A stretch of DNA of 64,000 nucleotides from Candidatus Latescibacterota bacterium (GCA_965206595.1 OZ242214.1:3520001-3584000); one strand, 5' to 3'; shown: positions 19,773 through 59,033, numbered from the stretch's first letter. Notes: generated from the letters alone by a model not told the origin. Numbers and translations: made by a program.

Positions 19773-19938
19773 CGGCTGTTGCCGATTGCGGACAGGTTCA
19801 GGGAGCGACAGGTGCTCCCGCGGCGGTCCCGCGCTCGGACGCGGCATAGCCCGACTCTCGCATCCTCTGCCTGGGGGTGATGGCGCAGGCAGGGGCGGCA
19901 ACCCCGACCGCTGGCTGATGGGCGTGCATTCATCCTGG

Positions 19939-24608: not shown

Positions 24609-24610
24609 TA

Positions 24611-25777: not shown

Positions 25778-25780
25778 TAG
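24692..25780 (+). CDS. IS630 family transposase
   Basis: Same DDE motifs ([27 protein letters not shown]); diverged homolog of copy A. Confidence 0.95.
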
Positions 25781-30601: not shown

Positions 30602-30639
30602 AGCTGCAGCAGGATTTGAGCCTCGGGTACATCATACAG

Positions 30640-40122: not shown

Positions 40123-40283
40123 AATGGAAATATTACGCTATCGTGGACGCTCTGGCAATGGTTCTTTTTCGCTGACCGAAAACCGGTTCGGTTTGCAATT
40201 GTTAACCTCACGGCAGTACCCTTCCCATGTTTCCGACGGCAAGGACATCTTGCCGTCTGATCGGATTCACTGGAGACGATCAC

Positions 40284-40697: not shown

Positions 40698-41604
40698 GAC
40701 GCCGGCCTCGTCATTGACGGGCGTCGCCGGTATCCCGGCCTCGAGTCGGGAACAGGCAGAAGAGCTGGCCGCCCTGGCCACGGTCCGCGCCAGGACGCGC
40801 GCCGCCCTGTCCGAGGCGGACGATCTGCTGCGCCGCGTCGACCCGGTCTGGTCGCCGCCGCCCTACGACCCGCTGCTGGTGGCGCAGGCCCTGGGGATCC
40901 GCTGCGTCAGGATGGACTCCCCGTCCGCTTCCCCCCACCCTGCCCTGCTCTGCCGGCACCGGGACAGGCCGACGATCCTCTACCGCGACGGCTCGGAGGC
41001 GCGCACCCGTTTCAATCTCTTCCACGAGATAGCCCACACCCTTTTTCCGGATTTCCACGAGAATCCCCTGCTGAGCCGCCGGCGCCCCCGGCTGTTCGAA
41101 CCGGAAGGACGGCTGGAAAACCTGTGCGACGCCGCGGCCCTCGAATTCATGATGCCTGCCGATCTCTTCGAGGCCGACCTGGTCGAGGGCGGCTTCGGGG
41201 CGGAACGGGTAGGGGATCTGTGCGCCCGCTACGGCGTCTGGCCCGAGGCGGTCTGCCTGCGCATGATCGCATCCGACCTCGAGTGCTGTGGGCTGGCCCG
41301 GTTCGAGTGCGCCCCCGGTCCGCGGCGGCGGCATCCCCTGCAGCCGGAACGAACCCTGTCCATGCGGTATTTCGTCGCTTCCGCTTCCTTCCGGGATCGC
41401 GGGCTGGCCGTCTCACGGCGGCTCGACTTCGACCGCGGCCACCCGCTCCACGTCGCCTCGCGCTCGAAGAAGCCGGCGGCCGCGGAACTGCTGGTCCCCC
41501 TGCTTACCGGAGGCCTGCACCCGTTCCTGGTCGAAGCCCTGCCGTTGCCGGGCAGGCGACGGCACGGGTACAGTCCCGTGGCTGGGTTCTTCCATCCCCG
41601 CTGA
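40690..41604 (+). CDS. ImmA/IrrE-family metallopeptidase
   Basis: RTRFNLFHEIAH (HExxH), ENLCDAAALEFMMP; overlaps the XRE stop. Confidence 0.85.
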   Translation: MTETPASSLTGVAGIPASSREQAEELAALATVRARTRAALSEADDLLRRVDPVWSPPPYDPLLVAQALGIRCVRMDSPSASPHPALLCRHRDRPTILYRDGSEARTRFNLFHEIAHTLFPDFHENPLLSRRRPRLFEPEGRLENLCDAAALEFMMPADLFEADLVEGGFGAERVGDLCARYGVWPEAVCLRMIASDLECCGLARFECAPGPRRRHPLQPERTLSMRYFVASASFRDRGLAVSRRLDFDRGHPLHVASRSKKPAAAELLVPLLTGGLHPFLVEALPLPGRRRHGYSPVAGFFHPR

Positions 41605-43357: not shown

Positions 43358-43666
43358 TTAACTCCCGGTCCCTGGCCCTTCCGCAGTTGCCCACTCCCGT
43401 CGCGCTTGCGCCAGTTCGTAGCTCGCCTGCATCCGCATCCAGTGGTCGGCCGTCCCCCAACCGATGTCCTCCAACGCCAGCGCCATATTCGCGGACACTC
43501 CCGCCTGGCCATTCAGCAGGCGCGACAGGGTGCCGCGCTCGCAGCCCAGGCGTGCCGCCGTCTCGGTGACGTTCCAGCCGACTTCCTCCATGCTTTCGCG
43601 GATCAGTTCTCCCAGATGTGGCGGGTTCAGCATGGGACCCACACGTTTACCTTCGTCGTTGTTCAT
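43358..43666 (-). CDS. higA: HigA-family antitoxin
   Basis: MLNPPHLGELIRE..VTETAARLGCERGTLSRLLNGQAGVSANMALAL..W.RMQASYEL. Confidence 0.9.
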   Translation of the reverse strand: MNNDEGKRVGPMLNPPHLGELIRESMEEVGWNVTETAARLGCERGTLSRLLNGQAGVSANMALALEDIGWGTADHWMRMQASYELAQARREWATAEGPGTGS

Positions 43667-43686
43667 TCGCGGAGGCTCCCTTGCGA

Positions 43687-43913
43687 TCAGTGATAGTCGA
43701 TCAGGTCCACGTCCACGGCCTCGCGGTCTTCGAAACGGAACACCATGCGCCAGGTTCCCGGATACGCGAACGCTCCACTGTCCCGCCCGATCCCCCCTCA
43801 GCGGATGCAGCCGGAACAGGATGCGCCGAAGCCGTGGCACGAGGTTCCCAGGCAGCCCGGCCTTGTCGTTCAGCTCATGCAACGCCTTCAAGCCCTTGTG
43901 CCTGATTTTTCAT
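43687..43913 (-). pseudogene. higB: HigB-like (RelE/ParE superfamily) toxin, disrupted
   Basis: Reconstructs as MKIRHKGLKALH..RLHPLRGDRAGQWSVRVSGNWRMVFRFEDREAVDVDLIDYH* after removing an extra A near the start and an extra C in AACCTGG; the middle segment appears deleted. Confidence 0.85.
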
Positions 43914-44379: not shown

Positions 44380-45047
44380 GTGCCAGCGACTATGGAAGCG
44401 GAGGTGAAGGCGCTGCACGCCAAGATCGGCCAGCTGACTGTCGAGAACGATTTTTGTCTCGCGGCTTCGGCCGTTGAGCCGCGACCGAAGGGTAACGATG
44501 ATCGATCCGTATCATCCCCGCCTCCCTGTCGTGCGCCAGTGCACCTTGGTCGTCATCAGCCGCTTCTCCTACTATTACGCGGGTCGAGGGGAAAGCTCCT
44601 TCAACCTGCAGCTGATGGGCTGCATCGACGAACAGTTTCTGTCCACGCCGTGGTATGGGTCGCGTCAGATGGCCCGTCACCTGCGGCGGCAGGGCCATGG
44701 AGTCGGTCGCAAGCGGGTGCGCCGCTTGATGCGACAGATGGGACTGACGACGGTCAGCCGCAACCCGTCGACCTCGGCGCCGGATGGATCCCATCGGATC
44801 TATCCGTATCGGCTCGGCCCTCTGACGATCGAGCGGCCGAACCAGGTGGGGTGCGCGGACGTGACCTATATCCCGATGCAACGAGGTTTCCATTTATCTG
44901 GTAGCGATCATGGACTGGGCGACGCGCACGGTGCTGTCGTGGCGGCTGTCGAACACCCTGGACAGTGCCTTCTGCCGGGAGGCCTGCAGGAGGCGCTGGC
45001 CCGCTTAACTCTGCTGTCCGGCTGTCCAAAGAATGGGGTCCACCTCT
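44380..45047 (+). pseudogene. IS3-family element remnant (end of orfA plus truncated, frameshifted orfB)
   Basis: LHAKIGQLTVENDF; VRQC..YGSRQM..RKRVRRLMR..PNQVGCADVTYIPM; LVAIMDWATRTVLSWRLSN in a shifted frame; ends in an IR-like CTGTCCAAAGAATGGGGTCCACCTC. Confidence 0.85.
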
Positions 45048-45107
45048 CGTTGTCATGGAACGCGAGATCAGATAAGATTCTAACTTGATCAGAGGTTGCG
45101 AAAAATA

Positions 45108-46373
45108 ATGCAAGACTGGAATTGGGATAAGAACGGTTGGATTTGTTTTAAGGATGGCCGCGAGCATCATGCGCTCGCTAATTTTTGCGCCGTTTGCGGC
45201 GGTGCTGTCGAGAGCAAACCTGTCGATTGCATGGCCGATATACCTTCCGGAGAGAGTAAAGACAGTGCTGTCGGTAATCTGCCGGTCATTATGGACAAAG
45301 TCGACGACCTCTTTAACGTATTCGGTCAGCCTTTATTAGTGAATAAATCCAGCGGAGAAATGAGTACCTACATAGAGAACGAGCCACGCGACCTGCCTCA
45401 ACTCAATGGGGTTTCCTTGCGTCAGGTGGATTTTGACCGCTGGTGGATTTACGCGCTCACGGAGGTGGGGACGCTGCAGGTGTTTCCGACCTCTTCGTTG
45501 TTGAACGACGATATGATGAAAGCTGCTTCATGGAAGCCGCTTGCCGTGGAATGTGAGCGCGTCGAGAAGATTGCCTTAGGCCGGAATCGGCTTTTCCTGC
45601 TGGACCAAGAGGCGTTGACTATTCATGTATATAAGGTAGATAAAGCAAGTTGCGATCGATACTGGAAGAGCGAAAACCGCATTTTCGACGAATTGCAAAG
45701 ACAAGAGCTAGACCAAAATTCGTTGCCTATCGAAGAAATGATCCCGATTCGGGGAAGCGAGACCTATCTGGGCTTAATAGAAGAGGAAAACAGGGTTGTT
45801 TTCTTGGATTTGGAACAGGGCAAGAAAATCTCGTATGAGGATGAGGATGCCCGCGGCGCTCCATTAGCCGCTTCGGCGGGCGTGATGCGCGGCGAGGATC
45901 CGTCAATATGGCTATTAACTCAAGAAGGGGGCTTGTGTGCCCTACAGTTAGTCGGCCAACAGGTGCTAAAAGAAATTCCGAGCCGAACCGAGGTAGAGGT
46001 ACAGGCCCTACAGACATTGCGGATCGAGTCCGGCTATTGCTATATGGCGATAGGGTCTAATTTTATGCTATTGTTCGATCCATTGAATCGGCAAGTTACG
46101 TCCAAATTGGAGTGTAGTCCCGGATATTCCATGAGGCACATTGATCAGACCAAAGGCTTGGGCGGCTTGGTCGCCAACTTCCAAAGAGGAGTGGGAGCTA
46201 ATACGGAATTTCGTCTTTCCCGTCTTGATGAACGAGGAGGGGAACCTTTCTTGCGCGGCTGGCCTTTAGGCGAAGATCCGGTTGTGCCGCCAGCGGGTTT
46301 CGGCAAATACGTGTACGTGATGACCCGCGATCATGAGTACCATCTGTATCGCTATGACCTATTGGCCGTTTGA
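45108..46373 (+). CDS. Hypothetical protein with N-terminal Zn-ribbon and probable beta-propeller
   Basis: C....H....FCAVCG at the N-terminus; short beta-strand repeats (WIYALTEVGTLQVF, LFLLDQ, IWLLTQEGGLCAL, YVYVMTRD..LYRYDL). Confidence 0.55.
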   Translation: MQDWNWDKNGWICFKDGREHHALANFCAVCGGAVESKPVDCMADIPSGESKDSAVGNLPVIMDKVDDLFNVFGQPLLVNKSSGEMSTYIENEPRDLPQLNGVSLRQVDFDRWWIYALTEVGTLQVFPTSSLLNDDMMKAASWKPLAVECERVEKIALGRNRLFLLDQEALTIHVYKVDKASCDRYWKSENRIFDELQRQELDQNSLPIEEMIPIRGSETYLGLIEEENRVVFLDLEQGKKISYEDEDARGAPLAASAGVMRGEDPSIWLLTQEGGLCALQLVGQQVLKEIPSRTEVEVQALQTLRIESGYCYMAIGSNFMLLFDPLNRQVTSKLECSPGYSMRHIDQTKGLGGLVANFQRGVGANTEFRLSRLDERGGEPFLRGWPLGEDPVVPPAGFGKYVYVMTRDHEYHLYRYDLLAV

Positions 46374-47961
46374 AAGCCCGTCATTCTGGTACGCTGCTCT
46401 GCTGTGCTGCCTAGGGCTTGGCGGCCCTCGTGCCGCCACTGGGATGGATGTCAGCATATTGGTCGATGGCTCTGGTTCAATGGAGGGCTTCCAGCAGACA
46501 AGTGAGCTACAGAAATTGCTGACCTCGTTGGAAAAAGCCTGCCAAGACCAGCAACTGGAGGCGGGCACTTTATTTTTTGTATCCCAACACCCGGATTCGC
46601 TAGTGTGGATCGAGGAGACCCAAGACGCACGCTGGGGCAGCTATACTAATTTGTTCAGGGCTTTTGAAGAAGGGCTTGGATGGGCTCCGATTACTTTTTT
46701 CTTAACCGATAATGTGCAGGCGACCACCAACGACGAAGATGTTCGGGGGCTCTATGCGCGTTTTGCGGAGGATGTGGTACAAGTACTATATGCCGTGCCG
46801 CTGAGTCTGCCCTTTGACGGGCGGTTGTTCAATCACCCGGACAAGGCGTACCACCAAGGTCCGCGTGGGGTGGTCCTGTATGCCTATCTCACAGAAGAAG
46901 ATCAGCGCGTTAGATTCGGCAAACTCATCTCCCAACTCAAGGCTGGCGGCTTGGAACCGATGCTGATGAAGCCGCTAGACCACCGCATTGTTCTACATCG
47001 CAAACGCAGGGCATATTCGGACCAGCCGAGCACCATCGGCATGGACGAATCCGAGTTGGTCCATTTCTCCTTTACCTTAGAGTCGCAATTGAGCTACCTG
47101 AATATCGAGCCGATGGATGAGCATGGTAATCCGGTGCGGTTGAAGGTGAGCCAGCCTAGGATCGTTCCCATGCAGCCCGAAGATCGGCGGTACTGGAGTC
47201 GAGCTGGCGGAAGGGGACAAGTTACCCCACCCCGCCTCGAAGAGAAGCTGGAGCACAATACTCAGAACAAATACCGCTATTCGTGCCGGGTACGCCTAGG
47301 CCCGTTCCAGCCCAACGAGGTTGGCTTCTTCGACCAGCTTGACATGGCGCGTACCAGCCCGATTCCGATCCAATATATGTCCAGGGTTGTCTTGGAAATA
47401 CCGCCTGGCTCGTTTCGCATGACTCCGATTTATCAGGAGAAGTACTTTACCGACAACCCCCAAGAGGTCGAGCGTATCTATACGCCAGACGATCTGATAC
47501 ACTTCCTGCACCGAGACCGAGAGGGTTTGGAAGTGGTGCCCAAGGGAGGAGCCATAAGAGGCAGGTTGCAAGTCCGTTCCCCTCTCTATCTGTGGCGGGC
47601 TTGGGTCGTGGTGATCTTGCTAGCCATCGCTGTGGTAGCTACCGGGGGAAAGGTTTATTTTAGGAGGCTCGTTTATCTGCTTGCAGCCGTAGAGTACAAG
47701 TACTGGATGCGCCCCGGCGGTCAAAAGGAATTGGAGTACACAAACCAAAGCGGAAAGGATATCGTTTTGGGATATTTGCGGCGAGACGGCCTGTTCAAAT
47801 GCAAATACCGCTTACTGCCGGCCGAAGAGGGCGACGAAAGGGCCGGACTAAGAAATCGGATGGACGATCCAGTCGGTGAGGAGGGGGTGGCTTTTGAAAA
47901 GGATGAAAAATGGGTTTTCAAACACAAGGGCAATGAATTTGAACTGGAACGCCTCAAATAA
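46354..47961 (+). CDS. Membrane-anchored vWA-domain protein
   Basis: Signal peptide; VSILVDGSGSM (MIDAS DxSxS), TNL, FFLTDN; single TM (WVVVILLAIAVVA) then a short cytoplasmic domain. Confidence 0.7.
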   Translation: MTYWPFESPSFWYAALLCCLGLGGPRAATGMDVSILVDGSGSMEGFQQTSELQKLLTSLEKACQDQQLEAGTLFFVSQHPDSLVWIEETQDARWGSYTNLFRAFEEGLGWAPITFFLTDNVQATTNDEDVRGLYARFAEDVVQVLYAVPLSLPFDGRLFNHPDKAYHQGPRGVVLYAYLTEEDQRVRFGKLISQLKAGGLEPMLMKPLDHRIVLHRKRRAYSDQPSTIGMDESELVHFSFTLESQLSYLNIEPMDEHGNPVRLKVSQPRIVPMQPEDRRYWSRAGGRGQVTPPRLEEKLEHNTQNKYRYSCRVRLGPFQPNEVGFFDQLDMARTSPIPIQYMSRVVLEIPPGSFRMTPIYQEKYFTDNPQEVERIYTPDDLIHFLHRDREGLEVVPKGGAIRGRLQVRSPLYLWRAWVVVILLAIAVVATGGKVYFRRLVYLLAAVEYKYWMRPGGQKELEYTNQSGKDIVLGYLRRDGLFKCKYRLLPAEEGDERAGLRNRMDDPVGEEGVAFEKDEKWVFKHKGNEFELERLK

Positions 47962-47976
47962 TACTAGGGAGTCAAG

Positions 47977-49026
47977 ATGAAACGGCACATCACCCTCGGA
48001 TTCATACTGGCTATCGGCTGGATGGGGTGTGGCGGGTCGGGACAAAGCGGCTCCACGTTTACTCAGCGGATTGCCAAGGAAGAGAAGGGAAGCGTAGTAT
48101 TCCTCAAGGTCTCTACCAATGAGGGAGAAGGGCTGGGGAGCGGAATCATCATCAAGTCAACGGGCCAAATTCTCACGGCACACCATGTAATCAAGGGCAT
48201 CAAACAAGGATGGGCCAAGCCGTTCAACGGGACTTGGATGCCGATTACGGGCGTTGTCGCTCAAGACGAACTCAAAGATCTGGCGGTGATAAACGTCGAT
48301 CCGGGCAACCAACATCTACAGCAGTCTAGGCTTGGATCGGGAGAGTATATAAGTTCGGGCGATCCCGTAGTGGCAATAGGCAACCCGTTGGGGCTAGAGC
48401 ACTCGGTCACCGAAGGGATTATCTCCGAGGTTCGCACTACCCCGGAGGGTCTCAGACTGATTCAGACGGATGCCGCCGTATCGCCGGGCAATAGCGGCGG
48501 GCCCTTATTCGATCAGAACGGGGAGGTAATTGGCGTGGTAAGTTTTAATCTAAGCTCTAGCCACGACGAGGGGCAGAATCTCAATTTTGCGGTCTCAATT
48601 GATGAAGCTAAACCACTGCTGGGTCTCCCCGCGGACCAATTTGAACCTGTTCGGGTAGGAGTCCCGCCACCGGAGACTAGATCGAAGGGCACCTTTCGCT
48701 ATGTGGAGGTTGGGCGCCTAGTCTGGATTTTTGTGTTTTCTGTAATCGTCTATCTCTTTTCGGCCTATCTACTCTTTAGCGGGCTCATCAAGAACCGAGA
48801 CAAGCACCCGGCCACGGCTTTTGGCATATCCGCCCTCGTATCGTGGGTGGGCTTTGCGGTGATCGCTTCCTTTGTGTTGAGCGGCCTTTTTGATTTTTCA
48901 ATGGGCTGGGTGTCAGGTTCGCAAATTGAATGGCGAGTCTTCATCGCTGGGCTGGTGTTCCTAATTTTCATCGTGGTGATAGTAAGACTTGTCTCCCGGC
49001 CATCGGTCGTCGAAAATTCAGAGTGA
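47977..49026 (+). CDS. Trypsin-like serine protease (HtrA-type catalytic domain, no PDZ), lipoprotein with C-terminal TM helices
   Basis: WMGC lipobox; GSG, LTAHHV (His), DLAVI (Asp), IQTDAAVSPGNSGGPL (Ser); three C-terminal hydrophobic segments. Confidence 0.9.
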   Translation: MKRHITLGFILAIGWMGCGGSGQSGSTFTQRIAKEEKGSVVFLKVSTNEGEGLGSGIIIKSTGQILTAHHVIKGIKQGWAKPFNGTWMPITGVVAQDELKDLAVINVDPGNQHLQQSRLGSGEYISSGDPVVAIGNPLGLEHSVTEGIISEVRTTPEGLRLIQTDAAVSPGNSGGPLFDQNGEVIGVVSFNLSSSHDEGQNLNFAVSIDEAKPLLGLPADQFEPVRVGVPPPETRSKGTFRYVEVGRLVWIFVFSVIVYLFSAYLLFSGLIKNRDKHPATAFGISALVSWVGFAVIASFVLSGLFDFSMGWVSGSQIEWRVFIAGLVFLIFIVVIVRLVSRPSVVENSE

Positions 49027-49117
49027 GAGACTACCGCCGGAGACTTCGACCTGAGCGCAGCCGAAGGTTTTCAGGCCACATCTAATACCAGTTGGAGCAA
49101 AATTGAAGGAGAACACT

Positions 49118-52100
49118 ATGCCTAGGGTCGGTACTCTAACTCAAGCAAAAGAAGGAAGCCAAACAATCGATATCCGTCCCACGCTTTTGATCGGCTTGGG
49201 AGGTACGGGAAAGGAAGTACTGCGACGGCTGCGACGGATGTTCTACGAGAAGTACAGGGTAGCGGGTTTACCCATCATGGAGTACCTATGGTTTGATACT
49301 GATATCCGCAATCAGTCCCTGAGCGGAGAGGTGCCCGACGAGTTGGACAGGCGTATTGATCTTACCGCTCCACAGAAGATTGATGGACGGGTCCAGCCCG
49401 GGGAGCTGGATGGATACCGGCGCAACAAGAATGCCTATCCCCATATATGGGACTGGTTTCCCAGCGAACTGGACGCGCTGCCTGCCAATGCCATCATGCA
49501 AGGTGCTGGGCAGATCCGTTCCTTCGGACGATTGGCTTTCTTCCACCATTACACGAGAATTCACGACGCCATCGAAAGATTGGGGAGAAAAGTAACTGCC
49601 CAAGAGGCCTTCGCGGACATGGACCGCGATTACCCAGATTATACGGTAGATAAAAGTGCCTTCGATATCATTATTATATCGTCTCTCGGCGGTGGAACGG
49701 GGTCTGGCTGCTTTATCGATGTCGGATTTCTGTGTCGAGTTTTGTTCCCAACTTCTACGCGCACGGCTTTTCTTGCCATGCCCACGGTTTTCGACGATGT
49801 AGTGGGATCCGCCGGGACAGAAGCCGTCCATGCCAATGGCTTTGCCGCCCTCAAGGAACTCGAATACTTCATGCAGCCCCGGTTTATCGTCGACGAGGAT
49901 AAGGAGACAAGCGAATACTCTACCCACGAATTTAATTGGGATGGTAGCCCTCAGCCGGTGCCAGCACCGCCTTTTGATACGGTCTATATGCTCGACAACG
50001 AGAATGTGGATGGCGAACGCATCACCGAATTCACTGATACGTTCCAGATGATCGCCGAGTTTCTGCTGCTGGATTTCGACCGGACTAGATTTGCCGCTCA
50101 AAAGCGCAGCGTACGTTCCAATATGGAGCAGTACCTACAGGATGTGACAGGCTACCACAGCGGAAGCTATGTCCAGTATTTTCCATGCCGATATGCATCT
50201 TTCGGGCTCTCCCAGATTGAATTGAATCAGCCTCGTCTGGCCAATGCGGCAGCTAATCGCTGCGCTCAGTATCTGGTAGAACTTATCATGGCCAAGGACA
50301 ACAGAATCCCTCGGGGCTATGATGATGCCGATGTCAAACCCCGCTTAGAGGGGATGGGCCTAACTGAGAAACTCTTTTTGCAACGCTGCTTGGCCATGCC
50401 CGGAAAGGATTTCACCTTGATTGATGAGGTCGTCAACGAGTTGATCGAACCGGCTTTCAATGAGTTGCAGAACGAGTTGCACACGGCACCGGCGGTAGAG
50501 GATCAAAAGGTTTTGGATCACCTAGTGGAAAAAACGCGGCAGGATATGGGTAGATTAGTCCGCGAGGTGAAGGAACGAGTAGGGGAAAGACTGTTACAGC
50601 AAGGCACCAAAAAGGGCGATGGTGTGACGCAGATCCTGGAAAATATCAGCTTGGATCGTCCCAATCTCGAAAAGCGGGTAGAGGCTGAGTGTCTTGAATT
50701 ATTATGCGATCCCTTGAATTTCGGCCCCAAGTTTATGGTTGAGTGGCTGAAGATCGCCGTCCTCGAACTAGAGCGCATCAAAGAGGAATTGCAGGCTAGG
50801 GAGAATCAGGACATAGAAGCACTAGAGGCACCGTCGCTCGAAATCGAATTTTCCGAAGATTACGAGAAATACGAGGCTCGCCTAAAAGCGGCTAGGGATG
50901 AGATGCCCTTTGCCATCTTAACTAGACGAATCGCTATCAACCATTACAAAGGACGCAAAAAGCAATCCCTTAAGCAGAACGCCGAGCTTATCACCCGTAA
51001 TCTGGTGCAGCAGGTGAAAGCTGTCGAGAAGCAACTAAAGGAATGGGTCACCGCTCGCTATGAGCAGGAAGCGGCTAGGCGTCTGTTCAATCCCAATTCC
51101 GGGGGACAGGTGCAGGAAAAGGGCCTGCTTGAAAATATGATCGGCTTTGTCGGCCAACAGACCGAAGTCCGGGGTACAGATGGTGAACTCCAGGTGGAAT
51201 TCAGCGGTTTGCTGGCCAAGGTAGAGGAATTTCAAAAACATCTCCAAGATCTGGCTAGCCGATTCGAGGGGTTCCATAATTCTTATCGAAAGCGGATGCC
51301 CAGTGTACGCAACCTCAGTCTCATGCCCGAACTTAACTATGAGGAGGCAATAAAGAAAGAGCTCGAAAGAAGAGGACTGACAGGTGCCGGTTTCAAGGCA
51401 ATTTTGCAAAATATTTTGAGGAGATATTTCCGATCGGAAGAAGCCAAGCCGCTGTTTGCTGAGTACGCTAATCTCGAAGGGACAGAGATCGATGCCATAC
51501 GAGATTGTACCCGCATTATCTTCAATCGCTCGGCGAATAAGAACAATGCCCCTCGTGATTGGGAAGAGGTAGAGGATTCATTGAGTCGGTTCGCGTTTGA
51601 CCTATTTAAAGAGTTCTATGCCGACAGGAACGCTGTTCAAGAGTTGCAAAACCAGAAACATAACGAGAAAGAGGAGATGCAGAAACGAGCACGGCTAGCC
51701 AAACCGCGGATGTCCAAGTTGAAACCTGCCCCTCAGGGTATGTCGAACCACACTCGGAACACGATAGGACTTCCCCCAAATGAAAAAAGGTGGGAGGAGC
51801 TAATCGACCAAAACGTGGAAGGATACAAAGCGGAGTATCACGCCCCCGATTCGGTGATATTTGTCAGTCAATGGATGGCCTTTCCTCTGTTCGCTATCGA
51901 GAATTTGAGGAAACTGCACGGGGCATACAAAAACAACCTTAAAGTTCCGCAGAATGTATTCCGTCGGTACATGACCAAAGACTATATCAAATATCCGGAG
52001 ATACTACCGCCTAGGGACGACCAAGAAGCGCGAACGCTAGTGGATGCCCTACAGCCGCTCATTGATGGCATCTTACTCGAGGTAGTGACTTTTGACAGAC

Positions 52101-52579
52101 GGGGATTCTACCGAACTTACCGAGCGCAGGGGCGAAAATACACGGATCATTACGGACCTAATATCGAGGTGGCACGCCGGAGTTTGGCCCAAGACAGGGA
52201 CACACGAGATAGGCTGCGCCAAGCGGTGCAAAAGATTTGGGATAACTGGAAATCGAATGGCAATGGCCTCGTTTTCGAGCAGTACTTGGCCCTCCAAAGC
52301 CATCTAGTGGATGAGGTATATCCCAAAAGAAGAGTTGTGATAGACGGCCAGAGTGTGAATGTGGACGACTTGTTCTACAGCTTGCTTAGCGAGGCTTTCA
52401 AAAAGAATTTCAAGGAGGTGCAGAAGCGCTTGGGCATTAGCCCCAGCGAATTGGACGACCGTATCGTCAAACACTTGCAGAACAAAGATGGTTTTGCCAA
52501 ACCCCTAGACTATAGCGATCCTCACTGCAAAGACGATATATATGTGATGGCGGGTGCCAGCCAATGCTTAGAGAAGTGA
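49118..52579 (+). CDS. Giant tubulin/FtsZ-like GTPase (Tubulin_2 / FtsZ-like 1 type) with long helical C-terminus
   Basis: AAGGAG RBS; LIGLGGTG, GAGQIRSFGRLAF, signature SSLGGGTGSG, ANGFAALKEL; about 800 aa helical/coiled-coil extension. Confidence 0.9.
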   Translation: MPRVGTLTQAKEGSQTIDIRPTLLIGLGGTGKEVLRRLRRMFYEKYRVAGLPIMEYLWFDTDIRNQSLSGEVPDELDRRIDLTAPQKIDGRVQPGELDGYRRNKNAYPHIWDWFPSELDALPANAIMQGAGQIRSFGRLAFFHHYTRIHDAIERLGRKVTAQEAFADMDRDYPDYTVDKSAFDIIIISSLGGGTGSGCFIDVGFLCRVLFPTSTRTAFLAMPTVFDDVVGSAGTEAVHANGFAALKELEYFMQPRFIVDEDKETSEYSTHEFNWDGSPQPVPAPPFDTVYMLDNENVDGERITEFTDTFQMIAEFLLLDFDRTRFAAQKRSVRSNMEQYLQDVTGYHSGSYVQYFPCRYASFGLSQIELNQPRLANAAANRCAQYLVELIMAKDNRIPRGYDDADVKPRLEGMGLTEKLFLQRCLAMPGKDFTLIDEVVNELIEPAFNELQNELHTAPAVEDQKVLDHLVEKTRQDMGRLVREVKERVGERLLQQGTKKGDGVTQILENISLDRPNLEKRVEAECLELLCDPLNFGPKFMVEWLKIAVLELERIKEELQARENQDIEALEAPSLEIEFSEDYEKYEARLKAARDEMPFAILTRRIAINHYKGRKKQSLKQNAELITRNLVQQVKAVEKQLKEWVTARYEQEAARRLFNPNSGGQVQEKGLLENMIGFVGQQTEVRGTDGELQVEFSGLLAKVEEFQKHLQDLASRFEGFHNSYRKRMPSVRNLSLMPELNYEEAIKKELERRGLTGAGFKAILQNILRRYFRSEEAKPLFAEYANLEGTEIDAIRDCTRIIFNRSANKNNAPRDWEEVEDSLSRFAFDLFKEFYADRNAVQELQNQKHNEKEEMQKRARLAKPRMSKLKPAPQGMSNHTRNTIGLPPNEKRWEELIDQNVEGYKAEYHAPDSVIFVSQWMAFPLFAIENLRKLHGAYKNNLKVPQNVFRRYMTKDYIKYPEILPPRDDQEARTLVDALQPLIDGILLEVVTFDRRGFYRTYRAQGRKYTDHYGPNIEVARRSLAQDRDTRDRLRQAVQKIWDNWKSNGNGLVFEQYLALQSHLVDEVYPKRRVVIDGQSVNVDDLFYSLLSEAFKKNFKEVQKRLGISPSELDDRIVKHLQNKDGFAKPLDYSDPHCKDDIYVMAGASQCLEK

Positions 52580-55500
52580 GTCAAGAGCGGGTTGATAAGG
52601 CGATGGGTGCTTGTCCTGTTTGTCAGTGGCCCTGTGGAAGTCGAATCATCTTTTGCAGCAGTTGCGGGATTCAACTCGCCCGTCTAGAGGTGTCTCCCAA
52701 GCCCGTTGAGTCGTTGACGCTTTTCGAAGGCTTTCCAGTCATCATGTGGTTCGAGAATACCGGGAAAATAGCCGTGGAACTGGAACGTCTCGATGGAGTG
52801 GAATGGGCTTCGGAAGCGAATTGGCCCGTCTCCTTGGAACCAAAGGAAAAAATAGAAATACGCCGGCAGCATACCGAGCGTCTCGGCCAACGGGGGCGGT
52901 TGATCCTGCACTCCACGGTGTCACCGATTTCATTTCATTACCGGGTCCAAAAGGCTCCCCGAATCTGGCTGGCTGACGAGCAGGGACGGAAGTTTGACCA
53001 AGGCACTGACGGCGCACAGTTGTGGCCGGTAAATCAGGAAGCCCAAAGGCACGATCTGGCTCTTCACGCCGCAAGCGAAGTTGTTTTGGAAGGGCCTCCC
53101 CGTCTGTCCAAGGGAGATCAGGTGGTGGATATAGTACCGACGGAAGAGGTAAGCTACCCTTTCCGCTTAGGCCCAGACAAAGCTTTTTCGGTAAGTCTCA
53201 CCCAACCTCAGCCCCTGTCTGAAGAAGGGCATCCTGTATACCTCGTTTTTGCCATCCAGAACAGAGGTGATGTCCATTTTCATCTCAATCTAAAGTACAC
53301 TCTTCGGCCGGTGATCGAGGTTGAGTTCAATCCGCTGAGTTTCACCGGTGACACGGCACTTATCAGCGGAAGCCGAAAACAGAAGACTGCGAGTGCCACC
53401 ATTACGCACTTACGAGGCGCACCACTACGCATAAATGTCGTGACTAGCGATACGTCTTGGCTGCAGGTCATTGACACCAAGAAGGCCCCGGTCATCCTTA
53501 ACCCTCAGAGTTCAACGGCGGGGGTTGGTGAGGTGAGTGTGCTGGATCTCCGGTTGCAAATAAAGACTCTCGAAATCCCTTGGGTAACAGAATCAAAGCA
53601 TTTTAAACCCGAGATCATCGTCAAGGGGGAGGCTAGAGGAGCGGAAGACCCGGCGTTCGAAGAGAGGTACTCGCTCTTTGTCGAAGTAAAGCCTCCCACC
53701 CCGTTAGATTATCCTATTGGCATCGATTTTGGGACGACCAATTCTTGCTTGGCCTATGTTGAAGATGAAGAGACAATGCCTCGCTTGGCAGAACTCGAGA
53801 TAAATGAACCTCGCGCCGAAGTGCCGACTGTCTTTCAGTTCCTAGCAACAAATATGAAAACGGAACGTTTGGAACTTTCCAACCCTCTGGAGCCTAACGA
53901 GCATCACTTGGTGGCGACCGAGAACGAGGAAGCTATCATGCGCTTTGGGCGTCAGCCATTTTGGCAGATGAACGATCTTTGGCTCAATAGCGATGCCAAT
54001 GAGTTCTGGAACTTTATGAGCAGTATCTGCTGGAATTTCAAATACGCTCTCAGCCAACCCGACGATCAGAATTTTTATATTTCTACCGGGATGTCGGAAG
54101 GTATCTTGATCAATGGACATCCCTCTATAAATAGGCGGCCTATCAGCCTGACTCCGGTGGACCAAGTAGCTATTTATCTCCGATTTATGGTAGAGCACTT
54201 CATTGGAGAATTCGGGTATTTGCCCAAAGAGGGCGTGCTGACTTATCCGGCGGTATTCAATCGCCAAAAACAGGCCCTACAGGACGCCGCCGAAAAGGCT
54301 TTGCAGGATCGCGGCATTAAGCTCCACCTAGCTATTAGTGAGCCTGAAGCTATTGCGGTGTATTATGTGAAGAAGCAGCTTGATGAGGGTAATCTGAAAG
54401 ATGATATGGATGAACAGATCATTGGGGTATTCGACTGTGGTGGGGGAACGACCGATATGTCCATCGTACGCTACACTATGAATAATAATGAAGCTCAAGT
54501 GGAAATTCTCGGTTCCGATGGCGACAATCGGCTGGGAGGGAACCTGCTGACATTTCACTTGGCTAAATACTTCTACGAGCAACTCGTCCCTGAACAGTAC
54601 CGCAGTCGCTATCCCTTTGCAAAAGATCTGCGTGATGGCTTAAGCACCCAAGATCCCAGTATGAAAAAGAACTTTCTGTGTCTCTATCGGTTAGCTGAGG
54701 AGATCAAGACAAACAGCAAGGCTTATGAGTCGTTCGATGAATGTTTTTCCCAAGACAGCTACAAGAAACTGATCCAAACAAGAGATAAGGGATTGCTGGA
54801 TCTGCTAGCCAGTGACGAGAAACTGAATTGGCCTAGGATTGATTTGGTCAGCCGAGAAGGGGGCGATGTATTTCGAGTCACGGAGGGCTTAAAGCGCAGC
54901 ATCAACGGCGACGCCTTGCCGGAGGAACTTAGCTCTATGGATTACCAGGCTATTCGCTCTGTGCTCAGCCGAGAATTAGAATGGGGCTTCCAAAAACTAG
55001 CTATGATGCAGCAGGCGCTTTTCGAGCGGGAGATTATGTCGGAATTCCGGCTAGACCACCTGATCTTGGCCGGCAACTCGTCCAAATTGCCGATTATGAA
55101 AGAGGTCGCCCAGGAGATGATACAGGCTAAAGAGTTTTCGGACTCTGCTCTTTCTTCAGAGACAGCCTCCAATAATGGCTTGAAGGCGAGCGTGGCTTCG
55201 GGAGCGGCTATTTACAGCATGTCTCAACGCGATCCAGAGTTCAGACTTCAAGTCTTCGGGATACACAAGCTAAATTATCCGATAGGTTCCTACAATCCAA
55301 TGCGAGGCTTCAGCCCCATTTTCGACCGTTGGATTTCCCTAAATAATGGAGAGGTACATCGCTATGCGAGCAGGGTTTCTCCTAATGATCGTAGGATTCC
55401 TCGGATCCTACTGTACGAATTCTTCGATTGGGACTACAAAAACCGGAAAGCAGATCGGAGTAAAGTAGCGGATATTCCCATGCCGCTAGGGAACAGAGCT

Positions 55501-55665
55501 TTTATGCAGGCCGAGTATTGGCAGTACAAGCTCGAGCTTCGAGCCGACGAAAATAATCTCGGTCGGCTCTATTACAACTTCGCGGTAGGACAGGAAAATG
55601 ATGGAAGTGATTTTGAAGAAATTTATGATGAATACTTGAGATGCGAGGACTTTAACTATAGTTGA
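52564..55665 (+). CDS. Hsp70/DnaK-like ATPase with N-terminal double Zn-ribbon and Ig-like region
   Basis: CPVC..CSSCG; IGIDFGTTNS, LTYPAVF, ISEPEA, VFDCGGGTTDMS, GDNRLGG, LILAGNSSKLP, SVASGAA; no canonical substrate-binding domain or lid. Start 52564 or GTG at 52576. Confidence 0.88.
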   Translation: MLREVSQERVDKAMGACPVCQWPCGSRIIFCSSCGIQLARLEVSPKPVESLTLFEGFPVIMWFENTGKIAVELERLDGVEWASEANWPVSLEPKEKIEIRRQHTERLGQRGRLILHSTVSPISFHYRVQKAPRIWLADEQGRKFDQGTDGAQLWPVNQEAQRHDLALHAASEVVLEGPPRLSKGDQVVDIVPTEEVSYPFRLGPDKAFSVSLTQPQPLSEEGHPVYLVFAIQNRGDVHFHLNLKYTLRPVIEVEFNPLSFTGDTALISGSRKQKTASATITHLRGAPLRINVVTSDTSWLQVIDTKKAPVILNPQSSTAGVGEVSVLDLRLQIKTLEIPWVTESKHFKPEIIVKGEARGAEDPAFEERYSLFVEVKPPTPLDYPIGIDFGTTNSCLAYVEDEETMPRLAELEINEPRAEVPTVFQFLATNMKTERLELSNPLEPNEHHLVATENEEAIMRFGRQPFWQMNDLWLNSDANEFWNFMSSICWNFKYALSQPDDQNFYISTGMSEGILINGHPSINRRPISLTPVDQVAIYLRFMVEHFIGEFGYLPKEGVLTYPAVFNRQKQALQDAAEKALQDRGIKLHLAISEPEAIAVYYVKKQLDEGNLKDDMDEQIIGVFDCGGGTTDMSIVRYTMNNNEAQVEILGSDGDNRLGGNLLTFHLAKYFYEQLVPEQYRSRYPFAKDLRDGLSTQDPSMKKNFLCLYRLAEEIKTNSKAYESFDECFSQDSYKKLIQTRDKGLLDLLASDEKLNWPRIDLVSREGGDVFRVTEGLKRSINGDALPEELSSMDYQAIRSVLSRELEWGFQKLAMMQQALFEREIMSEFRLDHLILAGNSSKLPIMKEVAQEMIQAKEFSDSALSSETASNNGLKASVASGAAIYSMSQRDPEFRLQVFGIHKLNYPIGSYNPMRGFSPIFDRWISLNNGEVHRYASRVSPNDRRIPRILLYEFFDWDYKNRKADRSKVADIPMPLGNRAFMQAEYWQYKLELRADENNLGRLYYNFAVGQENDGSDFEEIYDEYLRCEDFNYS

Positions 55666-56679
55666 ATGTTTTGTAGCAATGACCTGACAAGGGAGACGTT
55701 AAAAAATAAAGACCAGAAAAAGCTTAGAATGGATAAGATATCTATGGCAGAATTCCAAGAAAAGGTTGAGGCCCTAGGCAACGAAGTTGCCCACTGGGAG
55801 AAAGGGCTCCAAGCTCTGCAGGAAATCGTCTCTAAGACAAGACAGGTCCGCGAGAAACTACACACGGGCGATCTCGGCAGTCTCGTCTTCTCGGATATCC
55901 TCGATGTAGCCAAGGGCTTCGATGGAGCGGAAGAGAGCTTTGTGAAGAAAGTTGGCGTGTTTTTGAACGATTTGAGAAACTTCAGAAAAAAGCTGACAAA
56001 GTTCCACGACAATATACAAGCCTCCTACGACGATTACGCAGATCTCTACCAGTCTATCCCTATCAACACCAAGTTCCAAGAGCTACAAAAGCTAGGGGTC
56101 GATGTGGAAAAGAGACTAAAATCGTTCCAAGAAGAAGTACGGGATGCTGCCGAAGAATGGATCAAAAAATACTCAAAGATTACAAATACCCGAGATCGTT
56201 TCCGAGAAATGCTCGAAGAACTGCCACTAGAACCTGAAAAGAGTATGCCGTCGATACAGTATGCCGAGACCATTGACGAGGACATCAAAAAGATCAAAGA
56301 GGCAGTGAATAAATTGGATTTTGTCTCTTTTATATCGGAGGGATCGGCTCTCAAAGATCAATGGACGACGATCCAAGCTAAGATAGACAGTTGTAGCAGT
56401 CCGTGGGATTCTGCACTGATCGGTTTAATCAAACAGTTGGATGGCAAAGAAAAATCGCTAGAACAGAAACCCGCAAAATTGGAAAGATTTGCCCAAGAAC
56501 GCGACTTTGAGTTGATTTGGCCAGAGCAAGGGGACAAATACTCGCCAGAAGATCACCAAATTTCCGATGAGCGAGAAGATTCTCAGGTAGGCCGCGGTCA
56601 AGTGATTCGATTTGTTACACCTGGATTACGCCGGGGAACTGAGGTAATTGTTAAGTCCGGGATTTTGCTAGCGAAATGA
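55666..56679 (+). CDS. Coiled-coil protein with GrpE-like C-terminal head
   Basis: Long heptad-rich body; LIWPEQGDKYSPEDHQ..GQVIRFVTPGLRRGTEVIVKSGILLAK resembles GrpE G..FDP..H..G.V..V...GY....V...A.V.V; directly follows the Hsp70-like gene. Start may be 55729. Confidence 0.65.
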   Translation: MFCSNDLTRETLKNKDQKKLRMDKISMAEFQEKVEALGNEVAHWEKGLQALQEIVSKTRQVREKLHTGDLGSLVFSDILDVAKGFDGAEESFVKKVGVFLNDLRNFRKKLTKFHDNIQASYDDYADLYQSIPINTKFQELQKLGVDVEKRLKSFQEEVRDAAEEWIKKYSKITNTRDRFREMLEELPLEPEKSMPSIQYAETIDEDIKKIKEAVNKLDFVSFISEGSALKDQWTTIQAKIDSCSSPWDSALIGLIKQLDGKEKSLEQKPAKLERFAQERDFELIWPEQGDKYSPEDHQISDEREDSQVGRGQVIRFVTPGLRRGTEVIVKSGILLAK

Positions 56680-56736
56680 GCAAAAGGGTGCCTGTCCTGT
56701 AACTGAATTCCAACTACAGCAGAGAAATCCTCTCCC

Positions 56737-58337
56737 ATGAGTTTAGACTTTTTAGCCCAAAACAGCGATCAGATTCGGGACTGTTTTATCGCTCTCATTA
56801 TCTTGGTCGGCCTATTTGCACTTTACCGATTTGTCCAAGGATGCAGAGAAACGCGGCGATATCGCAGCGGATTGCGTGCTATGGAGAGATGGGAGAAAAG
56901 CAATTCTAATTTCAATCTAGAGGAAAAGACTGAGCAATCTCCCGAAGATGTTATTAAGGAAGTCCAGCATCCCCTAGCCGTCAGTTGGCTCGAACAGCTC
57001 CAGATGTAGACGGTCTTATCGGCTCTATCGAACACGAACTCGCCCGGTACGACGAAGCATTCCGCTCACTTACCAGCAGCCTCATTCTATTGGGCCTACT
57101 GGGCACGTTCGTTGGCTTAATAATCGTGGTCATACCTATCCCAGGTATTATCCAAGGAGCGCAGATTTCACCGACGTTGAGGCAAGAGGTAAAAATAGAG
57201 GATGTATTTAGTACCATCCTAGAAGGATTAGGACAGTCCGTAAGCGGGATGCCGCTGGCGTTCATTACCAGTATAATAGGACTTTTTTCCACCTTAATCC
57301 TCAATGCTCTGTACAGCCCACTACTCCACAGTAGGAACACATTATTGGCAAACATGGAAGAGTGCTTCAACGCGAAGATCGCTCCCAAGTTTGCTGTAAT
57401 GCCGCCTCAGTTGCGCTTGAGCCGCGTCTTTACTCAAACAGTAAACGACCTATACGATAAGTATTTCACTGCGCTTTCCGAATACTTAGACAAAAGACTC
57501 AAGGAGATTGTCAATAGTAACGCCCGCATGGTCTTACTTATAGAAGAGGGCGGAACCAAGCTCAAGGAAAGTAGCGAGGCCAGTCTGAAGAGCGCGCAGA
57601 TTTTTGAGCAGCACAAAGATACGGTAGCTGCAGGGGCGAAAGAAATAATGAGAGCGGCTATAGAGTTTTCTCGACACATCGAGAACTTTGAGCGGCTAAG
57701 CGGGCCTCTGAATGCGCTCAAGAACAGCGTCGATACTATGCTCAAGGAGAGCGAGCGACTGATGGCCCGACAGTTTCAAGCCTTTGATGAGCGGATAGAC
57801 AGACAATCCAAGTTATTTGAGGAGCGAATGGAGATCCTAGGAGATGGTCTAGCCGAGACTCTGGAGACGATAAGAGGATTGAATGACACAGATTATCGTC
57901 CAAATTTCGTGAACATCCAGAACCTACTCATTGCGGTCAAGGAGAGCCAAGATGCCTTCCTGGAATTTCAGAAGAAGACGCTCAACGAGCAAGGCGAAGC
58001 GTTTGAACGGGCTAAGAAACCCTTACAAGATGAATTGGAAAGGCTTCGCCAAGATCTGCAAGGATTTAACAAGGAGATAACGTTGTTGCAGAACCAGGCA
58101 GGCCAAGTGGTAGGGGCGGTCAATCAAGGGTTCAAAAAAACTGGGGAGGATCTCCAAGTACTGAAAGCTATAGATCTGGTAGTCCCCAAGCTCGAAGACA
58201 TGAATGCGACGGCGCAGGCTATAGAGGCTCAGTTGGATGGTATAGCGAAATCGCCGCAGGGTATCACCGTACGATCTCAAAGAACATTGAAATGGAGCAA
58301 TATTCGCCAGTTATTCAAGAAAAATAGCAGGGAATAG
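56737..58337 (+). CDS. ZorA/MotA/TolQ-like proton-channel subunit with long cytoplasmic coiled-coil tail; split by a frameshift
   Basis: TM1 lies in 56737..57009. LGLLGTFVGL and MPLAFITSIIG (MotA/ExbB/ZorA TM motifs) lie in 56985..58337, followed by a >300 aa helical tail. Frame change between 56958 and 57006. Confidence 0.8.
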
Positions 58338-58376
58338 CCAGAACCATTAGCTGAATGCTTGGGAAAGTAGCCCCGG

Positions 58377-59033
58377 ATGAAAAGGAATCGCAGCAGCCAT
58401 AGTGGACTCGATTTCTGGCCTTCTTTCACGGACGCAATCACGGCTATTTTCATTTGCGTCACCTTTTTTCTTGTTGTGATGGTGATCAAGAATTATGTGG
58501 ATCTGAGCCGTCTGCGAACGCTGGAACAATTGGTGGGTAAGATAGAGAAAGATCTCGATGAGTTAGAGGAATTTATGGGGGGGGAAGACGTCCTCGTGGA
58601 AGAGGGTACAATTGTTATGCGCAGTGATATTTTGTTCTCTTTTGATGAATCCGAACTGGATGATATTCCCGTCGAAGGGCAGAATCGGCTCAGCCGAATC
58701 GGTAAAAAATTGAAGGAGTTTACGGAAAAAAAAGACAGTAAATTGTTCAGCATAGTGGTAGAGGGCCACACCGACAGTTACGGCGAGAGGGAATACAACC
58801 GCAGTCTATCTCTGAGACGATCTCAAACTGTAATGGACTATTGGGAGCAGGTCGGTTTCACTTGGCAAAATTACGATATTGTCCCGGTCGGCTTAGGTGA
58901 GCGGGAGCTGGTTGTTCCAAACGGAACAAAGGATGAACAGTCCCCTAACCGACGTATCGTTATCCGATTGGTGCCTAAATTTAGCCAACTAATCCAAAGC
59001 CTGAAGGAACAGAACATCCTACTGAGGGAATAG
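58377..59033 (+). CDS. ZorB/MotB-like protein with OmpA-type peptidoglycan-binding domain
   Basis: FWPSFTDAITAIF (conserved TM Asp), DILFSFDES, VEGHTD, NRSLSLRRS, NRRIVI. Confidence 0.9.
   Translation: MKRNRSSHSGLDFWPSFTDAITAIFICVTFFLVVMVIKNYVDLSRLRTLEQLVGKIEKDLDELEEFMGGEDVLVEEGTIVMRSDILFSFDESELDDIPVEGQNRLSRIGKKLKEFTEKKDSKLFSIVVEGHTDSYGEREYNRSLSLRRSQTVMDYWEQVGFTWQNYDIVPVGLGERELVVPNGTKDEQSPNRRIVIRLVPKFSQLIQSLKEQNILLRE

Follow-up and report, generated by a model that had tools for sequence, protein, structure and literature searches.

An eight-gene cassette in a low-GC island

A 64,000-nucleotide stretch of the genome of a Candidatus Latescibacterota bacterium (GCA_965206595.1, OZ242214.1:3520001-3584000), referred to here as the window, contains an island of eight genes that brings together relatives of the ZorA/ZorB motor, a tubulin-like GTPase, an Hsp70/GrpE-like pair, a probable vWA protein, a membrane protease and a beta-propeller protein. 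All eight open reading frames (ORFs), here g1 to g8, lie on the + strand and fill window positions 45096-59033. Junction lengths, derived from the ORF coordinates, are overlaps (41 nt for g1/g2 and 16 nt for g4/g5) or gaps of 0-76 nt: 15 nt between g2 and g3, 76 nt between g3 and g4, 0 nt between g5 and g6, 57 nt between g6 and g7, and 39 nt between g7 and g8. The guanine–cytosine (GC) content is 0.45-0.54 in the island compared with 0.64-0.72 in its flanks (approximately 50% GC for the island and 68% for the genome). Coordinates and composition therefore agree with a preliminary description of the locus, made from the sequence, as eight co-directional, abutting or overlapping genes on an AT-richer island. 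With g7 split into two fragments, the eight genes correspond to nine window peptides. The cassette consists of the following features (aa, amino acids; TM, transmembrane, with topology assigned by hydropathy):

45096..46373, + strand: g1, cytoplasmic protein of 425 aa with a Zn-ribbon and a beta-propeller, as assigned with AlphaFold2 (AF2) and Foldseek
46333..47961, + strand: g2, vWA-like membrane protein with a metal-ion-dependent adhesion site (MIDAS) motif, a beta-rich region, a TM helix (416-444) and a tail of about 95 aa
47977..49026, + strand: g3, HtrA-like serine protease of the trypsin fold, with a signal-like segment at the N terminus and three TM helices at the C terminus
49103..52579, + strand: g4, FtsZl1/Tubulin_2 GTPase of 1158 aa with a long C-terminal extension
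52564..55665, + strand: g5, protein of 1033 aa with a Zn-ribbon, a beta-rich N-terminal region and an Hsp70/actin-fold ATPase domain with inserts
55666..56679, + strand: g6, coiled-coil protein of 337 aa with a GrpE-like C-terminal beta domain
56737..57009, + strand: g7, N-terminal fragment of a ZorA-like protein (TM1); the frame is lost between 56995 and 56996
56985..58337, + strand: g7, C-terminal fragment of the ZorA-like protein, TM2-TM3 with a MotA/ExbB-type motif, then a helical tail of about 330 aa
58377..59033, + strand: g8, ZorB/MotB-like protein with one TM helix (15-44) and an OmpA-type peptidoglycan-binding domain

Conservation in two deep clades

A scan of species genomes identified 8 relatives in 48 pattern matches, all in Latescibacterota/Latescibacteria metagenome-assembled genomes. 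We distinguish clade 1 (L001-L008) from clade 2, which comprises seven loci (L027-L033). The nine window peptides are matched in the same order in 8/8 clade-1 loci, which is more than expected by chance. In clade-2 loci the gene order (g1-g2-g3-g4-g5-g6-g7-g8) is unchanged, with identities of 27-49%: g5, g7 and g8 are matched in all seven (two of the g8 matches cover the N terminus only), g1-g4 in six, the contig of the seventh stopping inside g5, and a gene occupies the g6 position in all seven. Synteny in two clades rules out a chance juxtaposition of genes. The preliminary description had proposed conserved synteny as a check, and the cassette is indeed co-conserved in two deep clades.

The protease triad, the GTP loop, the ZorB Asp and the MIDAS residues are kept in every orthologue examined. 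Ratios of nonsynonymous to synonymous substitution rates (dN/dS) range from 0.12 to 0.66 in 32 gene-by-locus comparisons, a signature of purifying selection that is relaxed for bacterial genes. The distribution is patchy: when the phylum was searched with g5, the gene turned up in 16 of 168 genomes, the window's own included. By group, g5 is present in 6 of 52 high-quality genomes, in neither of the two other genomes of the window's genus, in 8 of 31 genomes of genus g12, and in 7 genomes of two other families at approximately 38% identity.

The ZorA/ZorB-like pair and a 28-bp deletion

The preliminary description likened the products of g7 and g8 to the ZorA and ZorB motor proteins, and the comparison holds. 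All 15 intact g7 orthologues match several PADLOC ZorA models (best 1.9e-13), and the C-terminal fragment in the window matches ZorA3 (1.5e-6). Intact orthologues have three TM segments, with an invariant Thr in TM2 and an invariant Thr-Ser in TM3 (alignment A1). Their helical tails give SMC/JetC-type coiled-coil matches and differ in length through the copy number of two unrelated repeat units (A1 columns 300-680; L001-L008, L027-L033), a unit of about 29 residues in 1-3 copies in clade 1 and a longer unit in clade 2. The g8 protein matches PADLOC ZorB1 (1.5e-20) and Pfam OmpA (3.3e-14, 53.4 bits vs a cut-off of 27.2); it carries a peptidoglycan-binding motif, and its TM Asp19 is kept in 14/14 orthologues. 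By their sequences, the two proteins make up a proton-channel pair of the MotAB/ExbBD type. NCBIfam ZorA/ZorB models score far under their cut-offs on the window proteins, and Pfam MotA_ExbB does not match the window g7 fragment. The ZorB-like protein is often longer in clade 2. At two clade-2 loci (L028:4621-5244 and L030:14891-15070) only the first 40-60 or so ZorB-like residues are recognisable, which suggests that the peptidoglycan-binding domain there is truncated or replaced.

The ZorA-like gene is a single ORF of 529-633 aa at 15/15 other loci. Alignment of the window DNA with the intact copies in L001, L006 and L007 shows that 28 bases are missing between window positions 56995 and 56996; the deletion takes out a conserved segment and shifts the frame. 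What the preliminary description had recorded as a frameshift is thus a broken gene, the cause being a 28-bp deletion relative to three intact orthologues. Because the deletion breaks the ZorA-like gene, the copy in the window is probably inactive. We consider it quite probable that the window genome holds a decaying, non-functional remnant, an explanation with which the position of the island against debris of an IS3-type insertion sequence (IS) also agrees; on the other side, the remaining seven genes are intact, their motifs are invariant, and a misassembly at the deletion is possible. Such a remnant would still belong to a real cassette family and is compatible with the conflict-system interpretation of that family given below.

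A tubulin-like GTPase with a putative Hsp70/GrpE pair

The g4 protein matches Tubulin_2 (PF13809) with an E value of 1.4e-66 (225.7 bits vs a cut-off of 27). Its GTP loop reads GGGTGSG in 8/8 clade-1 sequences and AGGTGSG in 6/6 clade-2 sequences. It is the sole FtsZl1/Tubulin_2-type gene of the genome, which encodes a canonical FtsZ elsewhere. No GTPase family besides tubulin was matched in the window peptides (Pfam, NCBIfam), and a scan of viral contigs that used the tubulin alignment gave no relative among 47. We rejected a TubZ-type role in plasmid partition: the island has no replication or partition genes, and the match is to Tubulin_2, with TubZ-type Tubulin reaching just 2.5e-4.

The adjoining g5 protein has a partial match to HSP70 (PF00012; 1.2e-15, 57.2 bits vs a cut-off of 20.6) over residues 554-674, and the g5 profile aligns with the nucleotide-binding domain (NBD) of DnaK (1dkg_D) at 1.7e-18. 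The phosphate-1, phosphate-2 and adenosine motifs align with those of the DnaK NBD and are invariant in the family alignment (A5). At its N-terminal end is a Cys-rich, Zn-ribbon-like segment. By sequence, no substrate-binding domain was recognised, and matches to Pfam and to DnaK in the PDB are confined to NBD positions. A 1481-aa chain in another record (P0062) joins Trypsin_2/Trypsin and HSP70 domains, which the cassette encodes in distinct genes.

The evidence that g6 encodes a GrpE-like partner is weaker than the preliminary description claimed. In the window protein the last 60 or so residues match GrpE (PF01025) at 0.0047, and the 17.1 bits fall under the cut-off of 25.8; a match at E<=0.1 is found in 10 of 16 orthologues (best 6.6e-6), and distant counterparts exceed the cut-off (36 bits at L056, 26.7 bits at L040). 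A profile search of the PDB with the g6 family returned coiled-coil noise only. Orthologues begin about 21-26 residues later than the window ORF, and the protein at the g6 position in clade 2 has an N-terminal TM helix.

A predicted complex of g5 (residues 380-1033) with g6 (130-337) scored 0.61, and the best of three controls scored 0.00; the prediction passes the mark applied to this score. Among solved complexes 58 of 80 attain that mark, and among mismatched pairs 2 of 110 do so, counts that are rough here because the alignments were our own. At least 87% of contacts recur between runs, with a partner predicted local distance difference test (pLDDT) value of at least 80. The predicted interface joins two g5 stretches, residues 720-777 (which follow the second phosphate motif) and residues 464-508, to the C-terminal part of g6; by analogy with DnaK, we read these g5 segments as subdomains IIB and IB, respectively. 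The structure of the DnaK–GrpE complex has been solved, and the prediction therefore indicates likeness rather than proof of binding. Canonical DnaK and GrpE are encoded elsewhere in the genome (dnaK at 1459464-1461251, grpE at 2054857-2055291). The genome also has a second adjacent DnaK-like/GrpE-like pair (G000:C1:5973415-5975531).

Propeller, vWA-like protein and protease

The g1 gene is not named in the preliminary description; its translation probably starts at the ATG at 45108. The protein has no match in Pfam, NCBIfam or PADLOC and no detected TM segment. Its AF2 model is all-beta (pLDDT 78; predicted template modelling score 0.84) and resembles WD40-type propellers of the PDB in Foldseek comparisons (best 7.1e-9). 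The N-terminal C-x-C...C-x2-C pattern weakly resembles Zn-ribbon proteins in a profile search of the PDB (E 0.12-0.19).

The product of g2 is a probable vWA protein, a more guarded assignment than that of the preliminary description. The invariant MIDAS pattern (D45-G-S-G-S49, T105 and D126, unchanged in 15/15 orthologues) favours it, and an alignment by hhalign with a vWA protein linked to FtsZl1 in Thermus, although at E 0.0018 and 15% probability, superimposes the MIDAS motifs. In the Atlas, all of the named clusters nearest to g2 are VWA (0.76-0.79), which serves as a lead only. Three results leave the fold unconfirmed: 0/14 orthologues match any Pfam family, a PDB search with the family profile gave 0 matches, and the AF2 model is unusable (pLDDT 36). 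With a vWA protein of Nostoc, hhalign aligned 11 columns at a probability of 0.2%. None of the 147 pattern matches from a metagenome scan with the g2 alignment was a relative.

The g3 protein matches Trypsin_2 (8.9e-29, 101.5 bits vs a cut-off of 27.6), with the His-Asp-Ser triad kept in 15/15 orthologues. DegP/HtrA models of NCBIfam cover the protease domain only (142 bits vs a cut-off of 416). There is no PDZ match; three TM helices (242-272, 278-309 and 315-346) make up the C terminus. In total, five of the eight cassette proteins have TM segments. The propeller, the tubulin-like GTPase, the Hsp70-like ATPase and its GrpE-like partner are read as cytoplasmic, and the vWA-like protein and the protease as envelope proteins. 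As the preliminary description stated, no nuclease or helicase is recognisable, and neither these nor ZorC-G were matched in the nine window peptides (Pfam, NCBIfam, and PADLOC at E<=0.01 for ZorC-G). A Walker A pattern occurs in 0/9 of them.

Mobility, recombination and decay

All copies of the cassette sit in low-GC islands. Both flanks are common to L001-L008, and the window shares none of this sequence beyond approximately 110 bp beside the last gene. Despite the different site, window g1, g2, g4 and g8 are 92-96% identical to their counterparts in L001 and L007. The position of the cassette at a different site makes it probable that the window genome acquired it horizontally. The nearest relative changes from gene to gene (L001, L002 or L007 for g4; L003 or L005 for g5; L007 for g6), which points to recombination between cassette variants. 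At L007:11425-12614, an IS insertion of about 1.2 kb splits g4 and contains a 336-aa ORF on the opposite strand, which we read, from its sequence alone, as a transposase. The cassette has therefore been inactivated twice independently, by the 28-bp deletion in the window and by the IS in g4 of L007. The cassette is real, conserved and mobile.

In a 59%-identity relative (L039), two 324-aa ORFs on the - strand (16780-17754 and 19503-20477) flank a g6-like gene. Over the stretch compared, both begin with the same 45 residues, and they probably represent a single IS present twice.

The wider family and its defence neighbours

We explored the wider family by scanning metagenomes with the tubulin-domain alignment and then applying hidden Markov models (HMMs) of the eight cassette families. 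The scan yielded 18 loci with tubulin domains at 27-59% identity. A g5-type gene (about 880-1180 aa) adjoins the tubulin-like gene in nine of the ten loci with sequence there, L047 being the miss, and a g2-type gene occurs in 6/18. Members of the long Hsp70-like family are not rare: a search of 1.84 billion cluster representatives gives 56 matches at E<=1e-30 and, at the looser threshold of E<=1e-10, 1085, and most of the 150 listed matches are 830-1100 aa long.

The most informative distant locus is L056, the tubulin domain of which is 27% identical to that of the cassette. Beside its tubulin-like gene are matches to HSP70 (1.5e-5), to GrpE (6.9e-9, above the cut-off) and a Zn-ribbon protein. 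On the opposite strand are a 526-aa ZorA-like gene (MotA_ExbB 5.4e-5, PADLOC ZorA2 1.5e-7) and a 224-aa ZorB-like gene (OmpA 1.8e-10, PADLOC ZorB3 9.4e-7). To one side of the cluster (L056:1-19542) lie BrxC (4.8e-252) and BrxF (5.6e-76), and to the other lie BrxA (8.8e-105) and PglZ (4.4e-160). These four BREX genes share a strand, and the cluster looks like an insertion of approximately 15 kb into, or between, BREX loci.

Five distant metagenome loci (L044, L048, L050, L051 and L056) were compared together with 10 kb of sequence to either side, and within those flanks a MotAB-like pair is present in one of them, L056. Pfam scans of surrounding ORFs found no further MotA/OmpA pair at L044, L048 or L050; a weak g7-HMM match at L050 (E 0.0016) was not confirmed by Pfam. 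Because the pair occurs in only one of the five, the motor is a facultative module outside the widest core. That core, as reconstructed from gene content, is a vWA-like protein, a tubulin-like protein and a long Hsp70-like protein, together with a GrpE-like protein in some cases, and the ZorAB-like stator is a recurrent addition.

Relatives of the tubulin-like gene also occur in eight plasmid records, of which we inspected five (Thermus, Nostoc, Azospirillum, Deinococcus and Cylindrospermopsis). The vWA–tubulin pair of the Thermus plasmid adjoins BrxL, an exonuclease and a RecQ helicase. On the Nostoc plasmid the tubulin-like gene lies amid CHAT and caspase genes, and on the Azospirillum plasmid amid caspase and OmpA genes. 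Near the Deinococcus gene, some 2 kb off and beyond an IS, are a ZorB-like gene and a ZorA-like one that bears the annotation of a chemotaxis protein; the Cylindrospermopsis gene has no informative partner. Proximity to defence genes, another feature that the preliminary description had marked for checking, is thus seen as a defence-like context in distant relatives (BREX at L056, BrxL in Thermus).

Comparison with known systems

ZorAB is described as a peptidoglycan-anchored, proton-driven 5:2 motor with a tail that relays an invasion signal to soluble effectors (PMC11946911), and Zorya types I-III combine ZorAB with ZorC/D, ZorE or ZorF/G (Hu et al. 2024, PMC11946911). The cassette resembles Zorya in both motor proteins. 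Its ZorA-like protein spans the membrane three times, carries the MotA/ExbB-type motif in TM2/TM3 and continues into a long, helical tail in the cytoplasm that varies in length through repeats; its ZorB-like protein combines an Asp in the TM helix with an OmpA-type domain for peptidoglycan binding, in which a Y-N-x2-L-x3-R pattern is seen. Unlike Zorya, it has no match to ZorC, D, E, F or G, to a nuclease or to a helicase, and it has six more conserved genes, including those for two envelope proteins and for cytoskeleton- and chaperone-family proteins. We therefore do not assign it to Zorya types I-III, the type-defining soluble partners of which (ZorC+ZorD, ZorE, ZorF+ZorG) were not matched.

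Operons that combine FtsZl1 with vWA, OmpA-family, GTPase and kinase genes were reported in 2010 (Makarova & Koonin, PMC2875224). The cassette shares with them an FtsZl1 of about 1100 aa with a GGGTG(S/T)G loop in a genome that also has a conventional FtsZ, a vWA-type protein (probable in the cassette) with an intact MIDAS and a TM segment, and an OmpA-family gene within the operon. It differs from them in having no P-loop GTPase or kinase (no Walker A). The main text of that paper mentions no Hsp70, DnaK, MotA or protease, and families A1-A2 and B1-B9 of its supplements might include cassette genes unnamed.

In a second published class, the GAP1-N2 DO-GTPase conflict systems (Kaur et al. 2020, PMC7159879), a tubulin/vWA theme and an HSP70/GrpE theme do not overlap; both are described chiefly from Firmicutes and Actinobacteria. 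Shared features, with a probable vWA protein and a GrpE-like protein on the side of the cassette, include tubulins with C-terminal extensions, a membrane vWA protein fused to a beta-strand-rich region, GrpE alongside an HSP70 that lacks the peptide-binding domain, Zn ribbons, a trypsin-like peptidase and a role proposed near the membrane. By contrast, the cassette combines both themes, occurs in Latescibacterota and includes a ZorAB-like stator; the available text of PMC7159879 contains no MotA/MotB, and its sole 'ZorA' is an author name in the references. Membership of the DO-GTPase/GAP1-N2 class was rejected, there being no Walker A and no GTPase besides tubulin; the absence of GAP1 is judged from the lack of a candidate gene, the libraries having no GAP1 model.

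Other comparisons are to single components. The g5–g6 pair recalls the DnaK–GrpE cycle in its Hsp70 NBD motifs and in a neighbour with a GrpE-type C-terminal domain, but the cassette has no recognised substrate-binding domain and no DnaJ, g5 has a Zn-ribbon/beta-rich N-terminal extension of about 380 aa and large inserts, and g6 is mostly a long coiled coil that is membrane-anchored in clade 2. Unlike HtrA/DegP, g3 has no PDZ domain.

The cassette thus appears to join kinds of system that are already known. The preliminary description knew of no account of the combination; as a claim of complete novelty this goes too far, since parts of it were published in 2010 (PMC2875224) and 2020 (PMC7159879). 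What we did not find in print is a combination that includes a ZorAB-like motor but lacks a DO-GTPase. The literature search returned no link to ZorAB and no such combination without a DO-GTPase, within a coverage that left out subscription journals and the supplements of PMC2875224 and PMC7159879. The combination was likewise not found in the available parts of a BREX survey, the CoCoNuT paper, the force-transducer paper or a tubulin review.

A candidate membrane-anchored conflict system

We interpret the island as one operon-like cassette that encodes a membrane-anchored biological-conflict system, probably directed against phages, and hold this to be somewhat probable. The interpretation is based on the motifs, the synteny, the purifying but relaxed selection, the patchy distribution in mobile islands, the inactivations, the recurrence at L056, the defence neighbours of relatives and the predicted g5–g6 complex. 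These features make a defence role likely, and the cassette would then probably be a nuclease-free defence system.

Several points count against this interpretation. The likeness to ZorA models is modest, and the ZorA-like profile retrieved no ZorA or MotA chains from the PDB, only coiled-coil noise. Scans of family libraries revealed no toxic or nucleolytic effector with an obvious activity among the island proteins. The MotAB-like pair is present at one in five distant loci, and BREX neighbours at a single locus amount to guilt by association; around the cassettes of genus g12 and of most clade-2 loci, neighbouring ORFs resemble housekeeping rather than defence genes, judged from the starts of the ORFs only. 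The vWA fold of g2, too, is probable rather than confirmed. A coupling between the ZorA-like tail and the tubulin-like protein, on which the mechanism outlined below would depend, is pure conjecture. Finally, the case is built on sequence features: parts, topology, motifs, co-inheritance, mobility and recurrence.

The same membrane proteins might instead form a machine for membrane remodelling or envelope maintenance with no part in defence, in which stator, vWA protein, protease and polymer shape, vesiculate or repair the envelope, as was proposed in 2010 for FtsZl1–vWA–OmpA operons (PMC2875224). The TM segments in five of eight proteins, the failure of library scans to match a nuclease or toxin domain and the housekeeping-like flanks in genus g12 all fit such a machine. 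We nevertheless regard it as rather unlikely: a maintenance function sits poorly with a distribution of 16/168 genomes and 0/2 congeners, with a low-GC island that has been transferred between genera and carries a mosaic of identities produced by recombination, with relaxed dN/dS and repeated inactivation, and with relatives that neighbour BREX, caspase and CHAT genes.

Inner-membrane-tethered vWA proteins were proposed in 2025 to be force transducers of TolQR-like 5:2 motors, with gliding motility cited (PMC12204202). By extension, the cassette could encode a motor-driven apparatus for surface adhesion or gliding, in which a TolQR/MotAB-like motor passes force to a membrane-tethered vWA adhesin and the cytoskeletal proteins provide an intracellular track; a vWA-like protein, a MotAB-like pair and cytoskeleton-family proteins do occur together here. 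This we consider very improbable. The topology of g2 differs, with the vWA-like part N-terminal, the sole strong TM segment at 416-444 and no SHLS-type motif seen there; the stator matches ZorA/ZorB models and not TolQ/TolR, and Pfam MotA_ExbB missed the window fragment. The arguments from mobility and decay that bear on a maintenance machine apply equally here.

If the conflict-system interpretation is correct, the vWA/protease pair, the ZorAB-like unit or both may sense a perturbation of the envelope, as proposed for Zorya; the vWA-like protein and the protease might also act as gatekeepers for the stator. By analogy, proton-driven motion of the ZorA-like tail could then recruit or nucleate the tubulin-like GTPase at the perturbed membrane site, and the Hsp70-like ATPase, cycled by a GrpE-like exchange factor, could assemble, remodel or dismantle the resulting polymer, with the beta-propeller of g1 as a possible interaction platform. 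The output would be non-nucleolytic: the membrane would be remodelled or sealed, or growth would be arrested. The specific proposition that the tail of a Zorya-type stator recruits an FtsZl1 polymer and a dedicated Hsp70/GrpE remodeller in place of a nuclease is more tentative, and we think it unlikely although plausible.

Were that proposition true, it would describe a cytoskeleton-based, nuclease-free immunity acting at a breach of the envelope, and would give FtsZl1 its first function. To our knowledge, no function has been assigned to FtsZl1/Tubulin_2 since 2010; we also know of no defence system other than Zorya that uses a 5:2 rotary motor, and of no described Zorya type that does not end in DNA-directed effectors. 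In a 2023 review, FtsZl1/Tubulin_2 was still an unexplained outgroup (PMC9871819). A ZorAB-like stator paired with tubulin-like and Hsp70/GrpE-like proteins would widen the range of what such motors control, and the cassette would join two published, separate conflict-system themes, tubulin/vWA and HSP70/GrpE. The gene set is well delimited and can be tested: intact orthologues exist, and the point mutants to make are clear.

Surroundings of the island

Features upstream of the island include the IS3 and antitoxin-like debris noted in the preliminary description:

44474-45088, + strand: IS3-type transposase fragment (HTH_21 1.2e-16), abutting the upstream edge of the island
43358-43891, - strand: antitoxin-like ORF (HTH_31), upstream of the island
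40227-41604: HTH_3 (XRE-type) gene overlapping a Peptidase_M78 (ImmA/IrrE-type) gene, about 3.5 kb upstream of the island

In the IS3-type fragment we found no catalytic domain. Pairs of HTH_3 and Peptidase_M78 genes are typical of mobile-element regulators. A truncated amine-oxidase gene also lies upstream, and an FG-GAP/ASPIC/TPR gene lies downstream on the - strand. Scans for promoters and terminators gave counts not above those in shuffled sequences (5 vs 12.9 and 15 vs 14.8), and Tandem Repeats Finder reported nothing relevant within the window's island. Elsewhere in the window, GC content falls to 0.58-0.62 at 1-7000, 23000-26000 and 29000-31000, compared with 0.65-0.69 in the surrounding sequence, and these stretches may be other acquired islands.

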